Shown one piece after another: positions 2,370 through 10,478 of a stretch of 64,000 nucleotides of DNA (its first letter is position 1; the number at the start of each line of letters is the position of its first letter). The notes beneath the pieces were generated by a model. The model was not told the origin of the DNA. It saw nothing but the letters and a program-made list of their open reading frames with translations, and did not search any database. Origin of the DNA: Acutalibacteraceae bacterium (GTDB lineage: Bacteria; Bacillota; Clostridia; Oscillospirales; Acutalibacteraceae); NCBI GenBank assembly GCA_045631405.1, contig JAZQUT010000090.1:5896-69895 (forward strand), in the 5' to 3' direction. The position numbers were made by a program, and so were the translations under genes.

Positions 2370-4175
2370 TTATTTAAATTTTCTGATAGTCTCCATAAAC
2401 GCCTCGCCGTAACGTTTGTATTTCACTTCACCCACACCAGATACATCTAAGAATTCATCCTTGGTTATGGGTTTTCTTCTGCTCATATCTATAAGAGTTG
2501 CATCACTAAACACCACAAATGCAGGTACACTTGCTTTTTGTGCAAGATCTTTTCTGACTAGTTTTAGTGCTGCTAAAAGTTTACTATCAACATCAGGAAG
2601 ATTTTTATCCTTGTGTCGTTTATTTTGCTCTTTTGCCATTTTAATGACGACCCTTTCATCACCATAAAGCACATTCTGACTTTTGGGTAAAACCTTAAGT
2701 ATAGAATATTGGTCAAGAGAGCTTTCCAGATAGCCTAATCTTACCAGACCATCCACTATATCATAAACTTCTTTCTTGGTATAATCGGGCATAATGCCAT
2801 AAGTGGATTGTGTCTCTAAGCCTGCCTCAAAAAGCTTTTGAGTACTTCTTCCTCTGAGCACATCAGCAATCATTCTCTTGCCATATTTCTGACCGGTTTT
2901 GATAACACAGGACATTATTTTTTGAGCATCCACAGTTACATCAACCGACTCAAAATATGTGAGACAATTCGCACATTTACCGCAATAGCTACTACTTGTA
3001 TCGCCGAAATAATCAAGAATAAAGCTACGAAGACAGTTTCTTGTATTGCAATATTGGACCATGCAATTTAAACGTTCATATTGACGGACCTTAAGAATTT
3101 CTCTTTCTTGGTCGGTAAGTTCTTCGTTCTCATTTGAATTCTCGATAAAATATTTTATTGTTCTTATATCTTTTGCACCATAAAGCAATATGCAGTCAGC
3201 ATCACTACCATCGCGACCTGCCCTACCCGCTTCCTGATAATAGCTTTCAAGGTCGCCGGGCATATTATAATGAATAACAAAAGAAACGTCAGACTTATCA
3301 ATACCCATACCAAAAGCATTAGTAGCAACTATTATCTGCTTACGGTCATAAACAAAGTCATCTTGATTCTGTCGTCTTTCGAAATCTTCTAAGCCAGCAT
3401 GATAGCGAGTAGCAGAGAAATTGTTATCGTTAAGAAGATCGCAAACCTCTTCAACCGCTTTTCTAGTGGAGCAATAAACAATACCAGACCTGTCCCTACG
3501 CTCATTTAAAAGCATCAGTAGTTGTCCATCTTTATCAGATGGTTCTATAACAGAAAAATACAAATTAGGTCTATCAAAGCCCGTTGTGACCTCTACAGGT
3601 TCTTTTAATTGGAGCAATTCCAATATATCTTTTTTCACCTCAGTTGTTGCTGTTGCAGTAAATGCACCAACAACAGGACGTTCATCAAAGCTTTCAATAA
3701 ATTCGGCAATTTTCAGATAACTTGGTCTGAAATCAGGTCCCCACTGAGAAACACAGTGAGCCTCATCAATAGCTACCAAAGAAATATCTGAGCAAAAACA
3801 AAACTTTTTAAACTCCCATGTTTGCAAACGTTCAGGGGCGACATATATAATTTTATATTTTCCTTTTCGTGCATACTCTAATGCCTTACTAACCTGGTGT
3901 GGCTCAAGAGAAGAATTGATATATGCCGCAGGTATCCCCATCTGTTTCAATGCAGCAACCTGATCCTTCATAAGCGAAATCAAAGGAGATATAACGAGAG
4001 TAATACCGGGAAGCATCAGTGCAGGAATCTGATAACAAACAGATTTACCCGCACCCGTAGGCATAACAGCTAAAACATCACGACCAATAGTAAGGCTGTC
4101 AATTATCTCTTCCTGTCCATTACGAAACGAGCTATGCCCAAAATATTTCTTTAATATTTCATATTTACCGCTCAT
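2370..4175 (-). CDS. recQ: ATP-dependent DNA helicase RecQ
   Basis: FRNGQEEII, MPTGAGKSVCYQIPAL (Walker A), DEAHCVSQWGPDFRP (DEAH box), RAGRDG, the Zn-finger CGKCANC, and a C-terminal HRDC-like region. I prefer the ATG at 4175, which has a GAGGA RBS, over the ORF-track start at 4187. Confidence 0.93.
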   Translation of the reverse strand: MSGKYEILKKYFGHSSFRNGQEEIIDSLTIGRDVLAVMPTGAGKSVCYQIPALMLPGITLVISPLISLMKDQVAALKQMGIPAAYINSSLEPHQVSKALEYARKGKYKIIYVAPERLQTWEFKKFCFCSDISLVAIDEAHCVSQWGPDFRPSYLKIAEFIESFDERPVVGAFTATATTEVKKDILELLQLKEPVEVTTGFDRPNLYFSVIEPSDKDGQLLMLLNERRDRSGIVYCSTRKAVEEVCDLLNDNNFSATRYHAGLEDFERRQNQDDFVYDRKQIIVATNAFGMGIDKSDVSFVIHYNMPGDLESYYQEAGRAGRDGSDADCILLYGAKDIRTIKYFIENSNENEELTDQEREILKVRQYERLNCMVQYCNTRNCLRSFILDYFGDTSSSYCGKCANCLTYFESVDVTVDAQKIMSCVIKTGQKYGKRMIADVLRGRSTQKLFEAGLETQSTYGIMPDYTKKEVYDIVDGLVRLGYLESSLDQYSILKVLPKSQNVLYGDERVVIKMAKEQNKRHKDKNLPDVDSKLLAALKLVRKDLAQKASVPAFVVFSDATLIDMSRRKPITKDEFLDVSGVGEVKYKRYGEAFMETIRKFK

Positions 4176-4194
4176 ATATATCCTCATTTCGATG

Positions 4195-4361: not shown

Positions 4362-5306
4362 CTATAACACCTTCATAATTTCTTCCGCAATCCTTCTAAT
4401 AACCGGCACAACAACACTATTCCCACACTGCTTATAAGCACTTGCCATTGGGATTTTAGGAAATCTAAAATCCTTTGGAAAACCTTGTAATGCAAGGCAT
4501 TCATACGGTGTGATTTTCCTTATACCATAATCATCGAGGATGATAGGTACTCTATCGGGAAATGTACCCATATTAGCAAGAAGAGTAGGACAAACATAAT
4601 GTTTCTTTTTTGAAACACCACTATCATTAATTTTATATATCGCTTTTTTATCAATTACGATAGATTTTAAAGAGTCGTAATAAAAGCTATTATCGCTATA
4701 GTAGTAACAACTGCTGTGTTTTACGCTACGATCTATAATATCTTCGAGCTTGGTATCAAGTTTGATTTTATCAGGGAAAACAAACCTTTCACATTTCTCA
4801 TTGTTTAAAAATGCTACCAAAAAAATTCTTGGTCTATGTTGAGGTATATTTCCATACTCAAGTGAATCCATTACACGATACTTTATGGTATATCCGTGAG
4901 GAGCCAAAGCATTATATACTGTTAAAAATGTGTTCCCGTCGTCATGCTCAATTAAGTTTGCAACATTTTCAAGAAATACAACTTCAGGCTTTTTTTGAGA
5001 AACAATACGTGATATCTCAAAAAACAATCCCCCTCTTGGATCAGAAAAACCTTTTTGTCTTCCTGCCAACGAAAATGGTTGGCAAGGAAAACCTGCAACT
5101 AACACATCAAAATCAGGTATTTCGTCAACATCGACTTTGCGTATATCTTTTTCAACTAGGTGCTCTGAACCAAAATTATGACGATATGTAGCTGCTGCAT
5201 CTTTATCGAACTCATTAGCCCATACGATATCAAACCCAGCTTGTTGAAAACCGAGGTCAATACCACCTATGCCACTAAACAGACTACAAACTCTCATAAC
5301 GCACAT
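4362..5306 (-). CDS. DNA (cytosine-5)-methyltransferase (M1)
   Basis: C5-MTase motifs in order: I FSGIGG, IV GFPCQPFS, VI ENVANL, VIII QHRPRIFLVAF, IX RKITPYECLALQGFP, X QCGNSVVVPV. The start is ambiguous (GTG 5309, ATG 5306 or ATG 5297). Confidence 0.93.
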   Translation of the reverse strand: MCVMRVCSLFSGIGGIDLGFQQAGFDIVWANEFDKDAAATYRHNFGSEHLVEKDIRKVDVDEIPDFDVLVAGFPCQPFSLAGRQKGFSDPRGGLFFEISRIVSQKKPEVVFLENVANLIEHDDGNTFLTVYNALAPHGYTIKYRVMDSLEYGNIPQHRPRIFLVAFLNNEKCERFVFPDKIKLDTKLEDIIDRSVKHSSCYYYSDNSFYYDSLKSIVIDKKAIYKINDSGVSKKKHYVCPTLLANMGTFPDRVPIILDDYGIRKITPYECLALQGFPKDFRFPKIPMASAYKQCGNSVVVPVIRRIAEEIMKVL

Positions 5307-5462
5307 CACACAACTATAATTTCTACTGTATTTTTAGTATATCACTTCATATCAAAACTCGCAACCCTGTCACTAAAATTTTGCCCTACAACTTACCACA
5401 AGAGACTTCTTTTGAAGCTACAAAAAACTTATAAAAGCTATATTAAAATTACTATAAACACC

Positions 5463-5522: not shown

Positions 5523-5732
5523 ATGTCTGATAATAAATTAATATATTTGGATACATATGTTTTACAACAGGATATGAGAATTAGAATGCCAAAAAGTATT
5601 TTAGAAAACCTCAATCTTGAAAAGGGCAAAAGCAAGTTCAAAATCTATTATGATAAAGTGAACACACAATTAGTTTTAAAAGTTGAAGATGATGAACAAG
5701 ATTCAGTAACCCCGAATGATGAGAGGAAATAA
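5523..5732 (+). CDS. AbrB/SpoVT-type (swapped-hairpin) small DNA-binding protein; putative R-M controller
   Basis: RIRMPKSILENLNLEKGKSKFKIYYDKVNTQLVLK fits the AbrB/MazE pattern '(R)v.iPk.i...l.l..Gd.v.i......i.l.p'. AAGGAG lies 7 nt upstream of the ATG at 5523. The gene sits immediately upstream of two MTase genes. Confidence 0.6.
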   Translation: MSDNKLIYLDTYVLQQDMRIRMPKSILENLNLEKGKSKFKIYYDKVNTQLVLKVEDDEQDSVTPNDERK

Positions 5733-5736
5733 ACAA

Positions 5737-6822
5737 ATGACAAATACAATAAAAGTTGTTTCATTGTTTTCTGGTATAGGTGGTTTTGAAGTTGGTTTAA
5801 AAAAATCAAAAATCAAATCTAAAGTGGTATTCGCTTCAGAAATTGATAACTTCGCTCAAAAATCATATACAGCTAATTTTTCTGCAAACTCATTGTTCGG
5901 TGATATCACTAAAATAGATGAAAAAACTATACCTGACCACGATTTATTGTTGGCTGGCTTTCCATGCCAATCATTTAGTATCGCAGGAAAACAAAAAGGA
6001 TTTGACGATATTAGAGGAACCTTGTTTTTCGATGTAGCAAGAATTCTTTCTGAGAAGAAGCCCAAATTCGTTTTGCTTGAAAATGTAAAAAATTTGATTA
6101 GCCACGATAAGACTGCGACAATCACAACCATTCTAAAGACGCTTAACAACATTGGTTATACCGTTGATTTTACAATCATTAATTCTGTCGAAGCTGGTGT
6201 CCCACAAAACAGAGATAGGACCTACATTTTGGGCGTATACAACGGCGAAAAAGAAAAGTTCCAAGACGATATTAGAAATTCAAAAATAACACAATTAAAG
6301 CAATTATTAAACAAAGAGAATTTCTGTGGATTTAATTTCTTTAACAAAGTACAATTTAATAACAAGCAAAAATTCATAAAAGATATTCTTGAAATAGAGG
6401 TTGATAAATCTTTCTTTTTTGACACACCCAAAATAAACGAATTCCTTTGCAGAAAAGAAAATTTAACACAAACAAAATGTGATGCTAAAATTATTAAGTT
6501 GTTCGATTTACCACGTGAAATACATAATGACTTAGAAAGACAACGAAGAGTTTATTCCATATTTGGTATCTCCCCTACTGTCTTAGCCAGAGCAGATTCA
6601 ACCAAAATTCTTGTTTCAACACCCGATGGGTTAAAAGTTCGAAAAATAACTGCAACTGAAAATTTTTATATACAGGGCTTTGATAAAAAGTTTGTTGACA
6701 ACATTAAAGAAACTGGTATGAGCGCTACACAAATGTATAAACAATCTGGTAATGCAGTTAGCCCACCTGTTATCACAGGAATATTGAATTGCTTATACGA
6801 GGAGCTTATAAATAATGATTAA
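5737..6822 (+). CDS. DNA (cytosine-5)-methyltransferase (M2)
   Basis: Motifs: I FSGIGG, IV GFPCQSFS, VI ENVKNL, VIII QNRDRTYILG, IX RKITATENFYIQGF, X QSGNAVSPPV. I prefer the ATG at 5737 (RBS GAGAGGAAA), just after the upstream stop. Confidence 0.93.
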   Translation: MTNTIKVVSLFSGIGGFEVGLKKSKIKSKVVFASEIDNFAQKSYTANFSANSLFGDITKIDEKTIPDHDLLLAGFPCQSFSIAGKQKGFDDIRGTLFFDVARILSEKKPKFVLLENVKNLISHDKTATITTILKTLNNIGYTVDFTIINSVEAGVPQNRDRTYILGVYNGEKEKFQDDIRNSKITQLKQLLNKENFCGFNFFNKVQFNNKQKFIKDILEIEVDKSFFFDTPKINEFLCRKENLTQTKCDAKIIKLFDLPREIHNDLERQRRVYSIFGISPTVLARADSTKILVSTPDGLKVRKITATENFYIQGFDKKFVDNIKETGMSATQMYKQSGNAVSPPVITGILNCLYEELINND

Positions 6823-7783
6823 GTTTATTGATTTATTCTGTGGTCTTGGGGGATTCAGAATTGCTTTAGAAAGTTTCGGATGCAAATGTGTTTTTTCAAG
6901 TGATATTGATAAATATGCACGAGAAACGTATAAAGACAACTTTTCAGAATATCCCACAGGTGATATCACAAAAATAGATGAAAAAGATATTCCAGACCAT
7001 GATATTCTGTGTGCTGGTTTTCCTTGTCAACCATTTAGCATAGGTGGAAAAAGGCTCGGATTTGAAGACACGAGAGGAACCCTGTTTTTTGATGTTTTAC
7101 GCATTCTTAAAGAAAAAAGGCCGAAAGTCTTCTTTTTGGAAAATGTTGCTGGATTAAGCAACCATGATGGTGGCAGAACTATTGAAACCATCATAAATTC
7201 TTTAAAGGAAATCAACTATATCCCATTTTTCAAGGTGATTAATGCGAAAGATGTTGGTTACCCACAAAACAGAGCAAGATGGTATTGTGTTGGCTTCGAT
7301 AAAGAAGTTTTCCCAAACATTAAAGAAGATTTTGTTTTTCCTTTCCCAACAAAACAAAAACTAAAATATACTGTAGATTCTTTATTGGAAGATGATTCTT
7401 CTATTGAATATACTATTTCCGATATTTGTTCCGAAAATATCCAACGACATATCGAATCATTCCAATCATCGCCTAGATATAATAATCAATTTATTCTGAT
7501 TGCAAACGAAGTTCGCAAATCAAGATGTAATTTTAGATGTGATGGCATATCTCCCTGTCTAACAGCTAAAATGGGTACAGGTGGAAACAATGTACCTATT
7601 ATCGTTGACAAAAGCAGAAAACTAACAGAACGAGAATGTCTAAGAATAATGGGTTATCCAGATTCATATAAAATAAAAGAAAACTTTTATCAAAGTTATA
7701 AACAAATCGGCAACAGCGTTATTGTACCGATAATAAAAGACATATCTAGCGAACTAGTAAAAATTCTCAAAAACAACATATAA
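6815..7783 (+). CDS. DNA (cytosine-5)-methyltransferase (M3), M.HhaI-like core
   Basis: Motifs: I FCGLGG, IV GFPCQPFS, VI ENVAGL, VIII QNRARWYCVGF, IX RKLTERECLRIMGYPDSY, X QIGNSVIVPI. From my memory of M.HhaI, the core is very similar (FIDLFAGLGGFRLALES, GDIT..NEKTIPDHDILCAGFPCQ). It overlaps M2 by 8 nt. Confidence 0.93.
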   Translation: MIKFIDLFCGLGGFRIALESFGCKCVFSSDIDKYARETYKDNFSEYPTGDITKIDEKDIPDHDILCAGFPCQPFSIGGKRLGFEDTRGTLFFDVLRILKEKRPKVFFLENVAGLSNHDGGRTIETIINSLKEINYIPFFKVINAKDVGYPQNRARWYCVGFDKEVFPNIKEDFVFPFPTKQKLKYTVDSLLEDDSSIEYTISDICSENIQRHIESFQSSPRYNNQFILIANEVRKSRCNFRCDGISPCLTAKMGTGGNNVPIIVDKSRKLTERECLRIMGYPDSYKIKENFYQSYKQIGNSVIVPIIKDISSELVKILKNNI

Positions 7784-7827: not shown

Positions 7828-9387
7828 TTATGGTTTAATTTCAATTGTATACTTACCTTTACTTCTTCCCGAACCAGTAGTAATTGTAAACTCAGGAATT
7901 TCATTTCTCCTCATATTGCCACTTTCATAAATAAAGTCTGCATGATATGGAGCTAAAAACCAGTGTTTACCAAGGAAGATACTTTCAGCTAACGCCTTAT
8001 TATCTTTGATTATATTTTTGATTTTAATTTGGGCATTTCTTCTAACATCGTCCCAAAAAGTAATAGTATCAAAATTTGAAATAGGTATCCCCATTTTATT
8101 CTTTACCTTAGTATAGAATTCTTCTTCAGTATTACCTAAATCATTAATAATCTTTTTATTTTTGTGTCTTTCTGAATCGGTACTATATATCAACAAAGCT
8201 GTTAACCAAAAGTCGACATCATCAACCATAGAAAAAGCTTGTACAAAAGAATTTCTAGTTAATTTTAAATATGTAAAATTCTTCGAAGCCTTCATTTTAA
8301 TAGAAATACCAGTTCCTGCCTGTATACTATAATCAAAATCTATAATATCTTTTTCTTCCAAAATATACTCTTTTGTTAACAAGAAGTTTTTTTCTAATTT
8401 AGCTTTAATTACATATGCGTCACTTTTGGTTTTCACTTTCTTTTGGCTCAATGTGGAATACTGATTTGATGAAACCTTTACTATATAATAATCAGAAAAA
8501 TCTTTTACATCTGGCAAAAGAACTTTCCACATAGGATTATCTTTATTTTTATTCATTATTTGACTTAACTCAAACTCTTGCAAATCTCCAAAAAACGTTG
8601 TTGTTATTTCAGCATGAGTTTTCATTAATTTGTCAAAATCCTCCACCATTGCTCCATATTTAAACTGGATTTCACCACGTTTATACTCTGTATTTCCCAT
8701 AGACGAAATATTCCAGGCTTGAATTGTAAGATTACCACAACTAAGACATGCTCTCCCCGAATATGGTAACCCTAATTGGTATGAAATAATCTCCTCCTTT
8801 GAAATCCATCTACCTTGTCTATAGGTACCATGATAAACAAAATCTACAACACTGTTATATTTCCCCATAAACAACGCTCTGTTAAGTAACGCTTCCTTAT
8901 TATCGTTTATAAAACGCTGTAATATTGTTCGTTCTTCAGGATATTTAGCTTTGAATTCTGCTGACGAGAATCTACACGCAATTTTTCCGTCTTTATCTTT
9001 TATAATCGGGGCTGTACCATCTGTAGTTCCGTCAGCCCATATAAACAAACGCCACAGATTACACACTTCCTCAGAGGCACCACAGTGTTTTTTTATAAAT
9101 TCAACAAACTCCTCTATTTTTTCTTGATGACACGAGTTACCTGTCCCCATTTTGAGGCTAACACCAAATCGCACTCCGTGTATGAAAATATATAGATCTT
9201 GTTTAAGTTTATTGTTAGTTTCATATTTCGCAATTACTATTGTATCATCATCCAGCTTTATTTTCTTAGTAGCGCAAATATATTTTACAAACTCTTTCAT
9301 AGTTAAGTTTAGTTCTTTATATTTTTTACCATTAAGATACTCAACCATTTCTAATTCATTACTATTACCGTGCGCATTACTTGCCAT
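7828..9387 (-). CDS. Putative Type II restriction endonuclease: two tandem MspI/HinP1I-like PD-(D/E)XK modules in one 519-aa chain
   Basis: Convergent with the MTase genes. N module: D64-X12-S77-L-K79 and ...GEIQFKYG. C module: D350/D352...S362-I-K364 and ...YTIEIKP. From memory, MspI has TD..NIK and a C-terminal MQFKG, and HinP1I has SD..QVK and LQFK. I prefer the ATG at 9387 (MASNAHG...) over the ORF-track start at 9438. Confidence 0.6.
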   Translation of the reverse strand: MASNAHGNSNELEMVEYLNGKKYKELNLTMKEFVKYICATKKIKLDDDTIVIAKYETNNKLKQDLYIFIHGVRFGVSLKMGTGNSCHQEKIEEFVEFIKKHCGASEEVCNLWRLFIWADGTTDGTAPIIKDKDGKIACRFSSAEFKAKYPEERTILQRFINDNKEALLNRALFMGKYNSVVDFVYHGTYRQGRWISKEEIISYQLGLPYSGRACLSCGNLTIQAWNISSMGNTEYKRGEIQFKYGAMVEDFDKLMKTHAEITTTFFGDLQEFELSQIMNKNKDNPMWKVLLPDVKDFSDYYIVKVSSNQYSTLSQKKVKTKSDAYVIKAKLEKNFLLTKEYILEEKDIIDFDYSIQAGTGISIKMKASKNFTYLKLTRNSFVQAFSMVDDVDFWLTALLIYSTDSERHKNKKIINDLGNTEEEFYTKVKNKMGIPISNFDTITFWDDVRRNAQIKIKNIIKDNKALAESIFLGKHWFLAPYHADFIYESGNMRRNEIPEFTITTGSGRSKGKYTIEIKP

Positions 9388-9422: not shown

Positions 9423-9451
9423 AGTTTAACAGCAGCAATATTTTTTGTCAA
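9423..9451 (-). promoter_or_regulatory. Candidate promoter of the endonuclease gene
   Basis: On the minus strand: TTGACA (9451-9446), a 17-nt spacer, then TAAACT (9428-9423). It lies about 35 nt upstream of the ATG at 9387. Confidence 0.4.
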
Positions 9452-9980: not shown

Positions 9981-10478
9981 TTGTTATTTTGTTGTATAAA
10001 TCGCGATTTTTGCGTCCACAGGGACCATTTAGTTTCCGAGGTAGGTACGGAAGAGCTGGGCCATCTTGAAATGATAGGTGCGATTGTTTATCAGCTTACG
10101 CGCAATCTTAGTCTTGAAGAGATTAAGAAGAGTGGTTTTGACACATATTTTGTTGACCACACAACAGGCATTTATCCCACAGCGGCAAGTGGTTTCCCTT
10201 GGACGGCTGCAAGTATGCAGTCTAAGGGCGATGTAATCACAGATTTACACGAAGACCTTGCTGCAGAGCAAAAGGCACGCACCACCTACGACAACATTCT
10301 CCGTCTTGTTGATGACCCCGATGTCCGTGACCCCATCAAATTCCTCCGTGAACGCGAAATCGTACACTATCAGCGTTTTGGCGAAGGCTTGCGCCTTGCT
10401 ACTGATAAGATGGATTCCAAAAACTTCTATGCAATTAACCCGGCCTTTGACATGAAGAAAAGTAACAAGAGAAGATAA
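9981..10478 (+). pseudogene. 5'-truncated manganese catalase / spore-coat CotJC family gene
   Basis: From ...SEVGTEELGHLEMIGAIVYQLT onward the ORF matches the CotJC pattern I remember (DIGTEEFAHLEMIATMVYKLT ... DLYEDIAAEEKAR ... FLREREIVH). The roughly 70 N-terminal residues, including the first metal-ligand helix, are missing. The upstream frames show no similarity. Confidence 0.6.

Follow-up and report, generated by a model that had tools for sequence, protein, structure and literature searches.

A probable AciI-kind restriction-modification cassette in an Acutalibacteraceae bacterium and the two proposed nuclease modules of its endonuclease

How might a single protein chain cut both strands of a short DNA site that reads differently on each of them? 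The question is raised by a gene in a stretch of 64,000 nucleotides (nt) from an Acutalibacteraceae bacterium (GenBank assembly GCA_045631405.1, contig JAZQUT010000090.1, positions 5,896 to 69,895), the whole of which is called the window here. The gene, referred to as R, lies on the minus strand at 7828-9387, beside two genes for C5 cytosine methylases, M1 and M2. An original prediction, made from the DNA letters alone, took its product for a covalent tandem of two diverged MspI/HinP1I-like nuclease modules that could cut an asymmetric site. A translation check bears out the open reading frame (ORF) on which that idea was built, with the ATG at 9387, the stop codon at 7828-7830, and a product of 519 amino acids (aa). 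We put the probability at about 85% that R, M1, and M2 belong to a Type II restriction-modification cassette like that of AciI, with a Type IIT endonuclease that joins two unlike PD-(D/E)XK modules, both from the HinP1I/MspI structural family, in a single chain and is likely directed at CCGC/GCGG.

What ties R to AciI? A search of a large protein collection returned 99 full-length relatives of the R protein, 494 to 545 aa long, and one protein, P0084, encoded on the Arthrobacter citreus plasmid CP053690, aligns with 41% identity at 100% query coverage (E 1e-116). UniRef names this protein AciI. The prototype plasmid, 9.9 kb in size, carries in order a helix-turn-helix (HTH) gene, a gene for a 703-aa double C5 methylase, a 75-aa HTH_3 gene, and the gene for a 527-aa endonuclease. 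The locus is the published AciI system, which consists of R.AciI, M1~M2.AciI, and C.AciI (PMC4081073). By alignment, then, R is homologous to R.AciI over its full length, and it can be annotated as an AciI-family Type IIT restriction endonuclease. A 2014 review counts AciI among the single-chain Type IIT enzymes "with two distinct catalytic domains" (PMC4081073). The type of enzyme is thus already known, and the window protein joins the known AciI family. The structural idea in the original prediction was largely right, and its conclusion of one chain with two catalytic domains had already been stated for AciI.

The methylases tell the same story. M1 (5716-6822, plus strand; Pfam DNA_methylase, E 2e-81) is the counterpart of the N-terminal half of M1~M2.AciI, with 62% identity over 354 aa to M.AciI residues 21-374, gapless and with the variable region included. 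M2 (6815-7783, plus strand; Pfam DNA_methylase, E 2e-95) is the counterpart of the C-terminal half, with 61% identity to residues 387-702, again through the variable region. The two genes overlap by 8 nt, and M2 is convergent with R. As aligned, both companion methylases are homologous to M1~M2.AciI, one for each strand, and AciI sites are known to carry 5-methylcytosine on both strands, CCGC and GCGG (PMC8112702). The expectation that two C5 methylases would serve an asymmetric site here is accordingly upheld, since R is an AciI homologue (CCGC/GCGG) and M1 and M2 match the two halves of M.AciI.

What do the two halves of the endonuclease look like? An AlphaFold2 model of the full chain, built on a 64-sequence alignment, has a mean predicted local distance difference test (pLDDT) score of 90.6 and a predicted template modeling score of 0.75. 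It consists of two alpha/beta halves with their junction near residues 258-262, and these define an N-module (residues 1-258; 8614-9387, minus strand) and a C-module (residues 259-519; 7831-8613, minus strand). Foldseek of the full model against a PDB library of 350,542 chains found HinP1I 2fkc_A (E 2e-9), HinP1I 1ynm (E 5e-7), and MspI 1sa3_A (E 5e-5), all three with a probability of 1.0 and a template modeling (TM) score of 0.58 to 0.60 normalized to the target; the next match had an E value of 0.2. When the C-half was modeled alone (pLDDT 89.5), its Foldseek statistics were different, so by elimination the strong matches belong to the N-half, which is structurally similar to the HinP1I/MspI family. 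The only notable match of the C-half falls in the same small enzyme family. The HinP1I/MspI fold that had been proposed for both halves is thereby established in the model for the N-module (probability 1.0), and the C-module, whose match to MspI is weak, is best described as a candidate for a distant MspI-like nuclease module. The order of secondary-structure elements is collinear in the two: the helix with the glutamate, the strand after K-x-D, the SxK strand, a helical block, the FxY hairpin, and a final strand. What distinguishes the C-half is an insertion between D323 and S362, along with a helical block that is longer.

Sequence families give a faint echo of the same pair of enzymes. In many genomes each module also stands alone as a protein of about 250 aa, and these stand-alone modules were scanned against 24,736 Pfam families. 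Endonuc-MspI (PF09208) was matched below threshold by 3 of the 49 stand-alone C modules, the best of them at E 0.0024 and 17.9 bits where the cut-off is 25.6, and was the only family matched by more than one of them, and R-HINP1I (PF11463) appeared below threshold in 1 of 39 stand-alone N modules (E 0.0039). The sub-threshold matches therefore land on exactly the two families that the folds point to. At the gathering threshold, neither the window protein nor its halves match PF11463 or PF09208. A search with the C-type profile through a set of 5.8 billion proteins, looking for proteins that would bridge to the MspI family of Pfam, found no Pfam annotation among the best 120 matches listed.

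Are the halves also related to each other? The original prediction rested on ten motif strings in five collinear pairs. Nine of the strings lie where it placed them, and the tenth, NKALAESIFLGK, occupies residues 463-474 rather than 462-473. Four of the five pairs coincide with conserved positions of the family and, in the AlphaFold model, with secondary-structure elements that correspond between the halves. G7/E11/N19 and G267/E271/N279 lie on the respective first helices; S77-x-K79 corresponds to S362-x-K364; F173-G175 and F471-G473 are helix ends; DFVY and DFIY sit on a beta-strand, and IQFK and IEIK on the last strand. D350/D352, the proposed catalytic acid of the second module, is not conserved. 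The invariant pair there is K321-x-D323, parallel to K62-x-D64 in the first module, which makes D323 the candidate catalytic Asp, and E345 is also invariant. Aligning the halves directly, as had been suggested, does reveal similarity, only marginally above chance at the sequence level. When residues 1-259 were compared with 260-519 by BLASTP, a single alignment resulted, some 113 residues long (27% identity, E 0.004) and in a partly different register, pairing the two GTG tripeptides and not the two SxK motifs. Profile-profile comparison with HHalign was non-collinear and insignificant when the profiles held close homologues (probability 5.5%). With diverse modules, one hhalign run reported the first helix alone, and another, whose score is weighed below, aligned G7 with G267, E11 with E271, the LN-x-K positions, K62-x-D64 with K321-x-D323, the F-x-G positions, and the FxY strand. 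The case for two related modules is stronger from structure and from relatives than from the list of motifs.

What, then, do the relatives say? A profile search picked out 742 of them from a set of 1.84 billion representative proteins. Domain parsing, which covered the 247 sequences in hand, distinguished 126 proteins with the fused N-C arrangement, 47 with the N module only, 54 with the C module only, 13 with an N-N-C arrangement, and 1 truncated N-N protein. The view that the chain consists of two separable modules is directly supported by the 47 N-only and 54 C-only proteins. Three split loci were examined, from a metagenome contig (L008:96-1650), the archaeon Methanobrevibacter curvatus (L009:3256-4783), and a Verrucomicrobiaceae metagenome-assembled genome (L010:3268-4777). 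All three have an N gene of about 250 aa followed by a C gene of about 260 aa; the N gene overlaps the start of the C gene by 8 to 11 nt, and two C5 methylase genes run convergently toward the pair. Two-subunit versions of the enzyme thus exist, with a gene order that equals the domain order of the fusion, and from their sequences these pairs look like natural heterodimeric AciI-type enzymes. In rough neighbor-joining (NJ) trees the split and fused forms interleave, with 22 to 25 parsimony changes; the trees are too crude to root this history, and the interleaving suggests that fusion or fission probably occurred more than once. At the metagenome locus (L008:1667-3745), one methylase shares 59% identity with the M2 half of M.AciI, and its partner comes from a different C5 methylase subfamily. 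With methylases of two subfamilies at that locus, some members of the family may read a site other than CCGC on one strand.

The three-module relatives, of about 780 aa, bear on the active sites. The proteins with two N modules (P0104, P0108-P0110, P0112, P0113, P0115, P0117, P0119-P0123, and P0138) number 14, and in every one the first copy retains the E-K-D-S-K residues, whereas in the middle copy two or more of E, D, S, and K are gone, although Q88, Q241, and K243 remain. Among N modules that are not duplicated, E11, D64, S77, and K79 are intact in 158 of 167. This selective decay of the catalytic set is good comparative evidence that E11 (9355-9357), D64 (9196-9198), and S77 with K79 (9151-9159), all on the minus strand, form the putative active site of the N-module and that Q88, Q241, and K243 serve as candidate DNA-binding residues. 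The serine of the SxK motif presumably stands where HinP1I has glutamine and MspI has asparagine. The N-N-C arrangement would then read as active, dead, active. HinP1I recognizes its bases through Q93, K96, and K223 (PMC7026639), and these are spaced from the catalytic lysine similarly to Q88, Q241, and K243.

The C-module has candidates of its own, chosen by conservation: E271 (8575-8577), D323 (8419-8421), E345 (8353-8355), and S362 with K364 (8296-8304), on the same strand. Together with R508, which belongs to a conserved TTGSGRS loop (G505-R508), they are intact in 186 of 192 C modules. Both modules of the window protein therefore retain an E...D...SxK set, E11/D64/S77/K79 in one and E271/D323/S362/K364 in the other, and the C-module, too, is probably catalytically active.

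Several observations weigh against the AciI-type, two-nuclease interpretation. Scans of the whole R protein found no Pfam or NCBIfam match. Sequence searches of the PDB gave chance matches only, whether the query was the R protein, a profile of the full family, one of the C type or of the N type, or the relative P0165. The C-half Foldseek search has MspI 1sa3_A at the top with weak statistics (E 0.095, probability 0.69, TM 0.40; the next match has E 2.7). Even with about 190 diverse modules per side, the profile-profile alignment of the halves, collinear over 189 columns, is marginal (P 0.007, HHalign probability 5.6%). R is not preceded by a gene for an HTH C protein as in AciI; a 69-aa ORF lies before M1 instead. 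Finally, identity to the AciI proteins is 41% for R and about 61% for the methylases, values at which the specificity could differ from CCGC.

This last point is the starting place for an alternative in which the architecture is that of AciI and the target is a related, different asymmetric site. Besides the 41% identity of R, the swapping of methylases in relatives speaks for it, as in the metagenome locus described above, which pairs an M2.AciI-like methylase with one of another subfamily. In the window, by contrast, both methylases align to the matching M.AciI halves at 61 to 62% identity, gapless through the variable region, and CCGC is the most avoided nonpalindromic tetramer. Its observed-to-expected ratio (O/E), counted as CCGC/GCGG, is 0.43, the sixth lowest of 136 tetramers and the lowest that is not a palindrome. 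The 3.6 kb of R, M1, and M2 contain 0 CCGC sites, versus 70 in the whole window. We regard a different site as unlikely, and CCGC/GCGG is, on this evidence, most likely the site of the window enzyme.

Could only one of the two modules be a nuclease? In that case the C-half would be a degenerate, nuclease-like DNA-binding domain, comparable to the dead middle module of the N-N-C relatives or to the second domain of Sau3AI, and cleavage of both strands would need two protein molecules. The weak fold match of the C-half to MspI fits such an arrangement, as does the occurrence of inactive module copies in the family, and Sau3AI does have two similar domains (HhaI paper, PMC7026639). Conservation speaks the other way: E271, D323, E345, S362, and K364 are kept in 186 of 192 C modules from bacteria, archaea, and stand-alone subunits alike, whereas catalytic residues disappear quickly from the middle N copies, which are truly redundant. 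The review cited above counts AciI among enzymes with two distinct catalytic domains (PMC4081073), and simple re-binding cannot bring a lone active site to both strands of an asymmetric target. Catalysis by the N-module alone is thus very doubtful.

A recent internal tandem duplication within the gene lineage, the literal "covalent tandem," has the collinear motif pairs and the common structural family of the halves in its favor but is scarcely credible when the N and C profiles can barely be aligned (P 0.007, probability 5.6%), the N hidden Markov model never matches C modules, N is nearer to HinP1I and C to MspI, archaea and distant bacteria have N and C as paired, separate genes, and split and fused forms interleave in the rough NJ trees (22 to 25 parsimony changes). 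Because the modules are so diverged, the fusion of two old subunit genes fits better.

How would such an enzyme work? AciI cuts C^CGC / G^CGG and leaves a 5'-CG overhang. MspI (C^CGG) and HinP1I (G^CGC) cut likewise (PMC7026639). In the AciI-type mechanism proposed for the window cassette, M1 and M2 would each methylate one strand of CCGC/GCGG, and the endonuclease would bind an unmethylated site as a single chain. Each module would supply one active site and nick one strand, and both strands would be cut at one bound site. Catalysis in the N-module would depend on E11, D64, and S77-x-K79, and in the C-module on E271, D323, and S362-x-K364, possibly with E345. By analogy to AciI, the cut would be expected before the central CG on both strands. 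Which module takes which strand? Since HinP1I cuts G^CGC and MspI cuts C^CGG, the HinP1I-like N-module might cut the G^CGG strand and the MspI-like C-module the C^CGC strand. Extended to the whole family, this would make AciI-type enzymes chimeras of HinP1I-like and MspI-like strand-nicking modules, each reading and cutting its own strand of a hybrid site, a tentative proposal that we hold at somewhat less than even odds. No description of HinP1I-like and MspI-like modules in the AciI family was found in the literature searched.

The R gene also has plausible expression signals. A promoter-like site at 9423-9451 on the minus strand (TTGACA, a spacer of 17 nt, and TAAACT with TG) was picked up by a consensus scan, as a pattern match alone, and a GGGTGAG ribosome-binding site lies 3' of it, upstream of the R ATG. 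About 600 bp upstream of the start of R is an ORF (9981-10478, plus strand) with a TTG start that covers only positions 57-198 of a 284-position Mn-catalase profile. By this coverage it looks like a truncated catalase gene, and its presence so close to R raises the possibility that the cassette inserted here.

On the other side of the cassette, directly upstream of M1 and overlapping it, is the 69-aa ORF mentioned above (5523-5732, plus strand). Related cassettes (L004 to L006) have a 100% identical ORF in this position, where it is annotated as a gene; the endonuclease of one of them, L004, is only 92% identical to R. It has no Pfam match, and by eye it carries an AbrB/SpoVT-like 'RIRMPKSILENLNLEKG' stretch. 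It is a candidate small regulator of the cassette, which may replace the HTH C protein of AciI.

Beyond it, divergent from M1, comes a third C5 methylase (4362-5309, minus strand; Pfam E 3e-88). It shares only 37% identity with either half of M.AciI and is found at the same position in the related cassettes L004 and L005, so in these comparisons it is not AciI-like but accompanies the cassette in close relatives. It is followed on the same strand by genes for RecQ (2370-4187), a small MazG-like ORF (2037-2357), and a NUDIX hydrolase (1654-2037), whose best matches are the PRK08999 Nudix family hydrolase (E 7e-33) and PRK10546, a pyrimidine (deoxy)nucleoside triphosphate diphosphatase model (E 3e-30). 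The pairing of methylase and NUDIX hydrolase is also seen beside the AciI-like cassette in L004 and L005. Several palindromic tetramers are strongly under-represented in the window (O/E of 0.22 for ACGT, 0.24 for GATC, 0.27 for GGCC, 0.29 for CTAG, and 0.35 for CATG), which suggests that other restriction systems act in the host. One possible target of the third methylase is GGCC. Among the relatives, the region upstream of a Sulfurovum-type homologue (L007:531-6011) shows ORFs of about 1,800 aa on both strands; this is almost certainly a masked or N-filled stretch and not real genes.

What does the locus add? Taken by itself, the window adds one AciI-like restriction-modification cassette to those known, and its main use is to get annotations right: all relatives of R in the databases are labeled "hypothetical protein," and neither Pfam nor NCBIfam has a model for them. 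Conceptually it holds no surprise, since it is well established that a Type IIT enzyme can carry two catalytic sites on a single chain. At the level of the family, a chain of two HinP1I/MspI-type modules offers a structural rationale for the way AciI handles an asymmetric 4-bp site, and D64/K79 and D323/K364 are candidate residues for making top- and bottom-strand nickases of the AciI type. If the chimera proposal is true, the split relatives and the three-module (active-dead-active) relatives would amount to a toolkit for strand-specific nickases and recombined asymmetric specificities. The fold rationale, the nickase residues, and the split and three-module relatives should be of practical interest to restriction-enzyme engineers. 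The HinP1I/MspI fold assignment and the split and N-N-C forms of the AciI family, which were not found in the literature searched, are of moderate interest to specialists.

How does the window cassette compare with the systems already known? AciI itself is the nearest. The two endonucleases are collinear over their full length (519 versus 527 aa) and have the two-module layout and the conserved residues in common, and the window C5 methylases correspond to both halves of M.AciI. Besides the missing C-protein gene and the 69-aa ORF, other features set the loci apart. The methylases are encoded in the window by two overlapping genes convergent with R, whereas in AciI a single 703-aa fusion protein is encoded upstream of R; the window cassette comes with a third C5 methylase; and it is chromosomal, among housekeeping genes of a low-GC anaerobe, whereas AciI resides on its small plasmid of 9.9 kb.

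HinP1I and MspI (PDB 2FKC/1YNM and 1SA3) are the nearest in structure. The N-module matches their fold at a TM of about 0.6, normalized to the target, and there is a weak match of the C-module to MspI; in common, too, are a D-Xn-(polar)-x-K type of catalytic motif, with an acid on the first helix, and the central CG of the sites. The window protein differs in having no membership of their families at the sequence level (no Pfam match). HinP1I and MspI are single modules that re-bind in the opposite orientation, a monomer with one active site acting sequentially on a palindrome; the window enzyme has two modules in one chain, and its target, like that of its prototype, would be asymmetric.

The third comparison is with other heterodimeric and fused Type IIT enzymes, such as BbvCI, Bpu10I, Mva1269I, BsmI, BsrI, and BtsCI, none of which was matched in the PDB sequence or structure searches. 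The likeness lies in the proposed plan of two different catalytic sites, one per strand, with two methylase activities, and the difference in the modules, which in the window enzyme come from the HinP1I/MspI lineage. BbvCI and Bpu10I are made of two separately encoded subunits, an organization found in the L008, L009, and L010 relatives and not in the window, where a single ORF encodes all 519 aa. The relatives of the window enzyme thus include two-subunit gene pairs, and the description of R as a fused analogue of heterodimeric enzymes of the Bpu10I/BbvCI type is apt, as unfused, two-gene versions of the same family exist.

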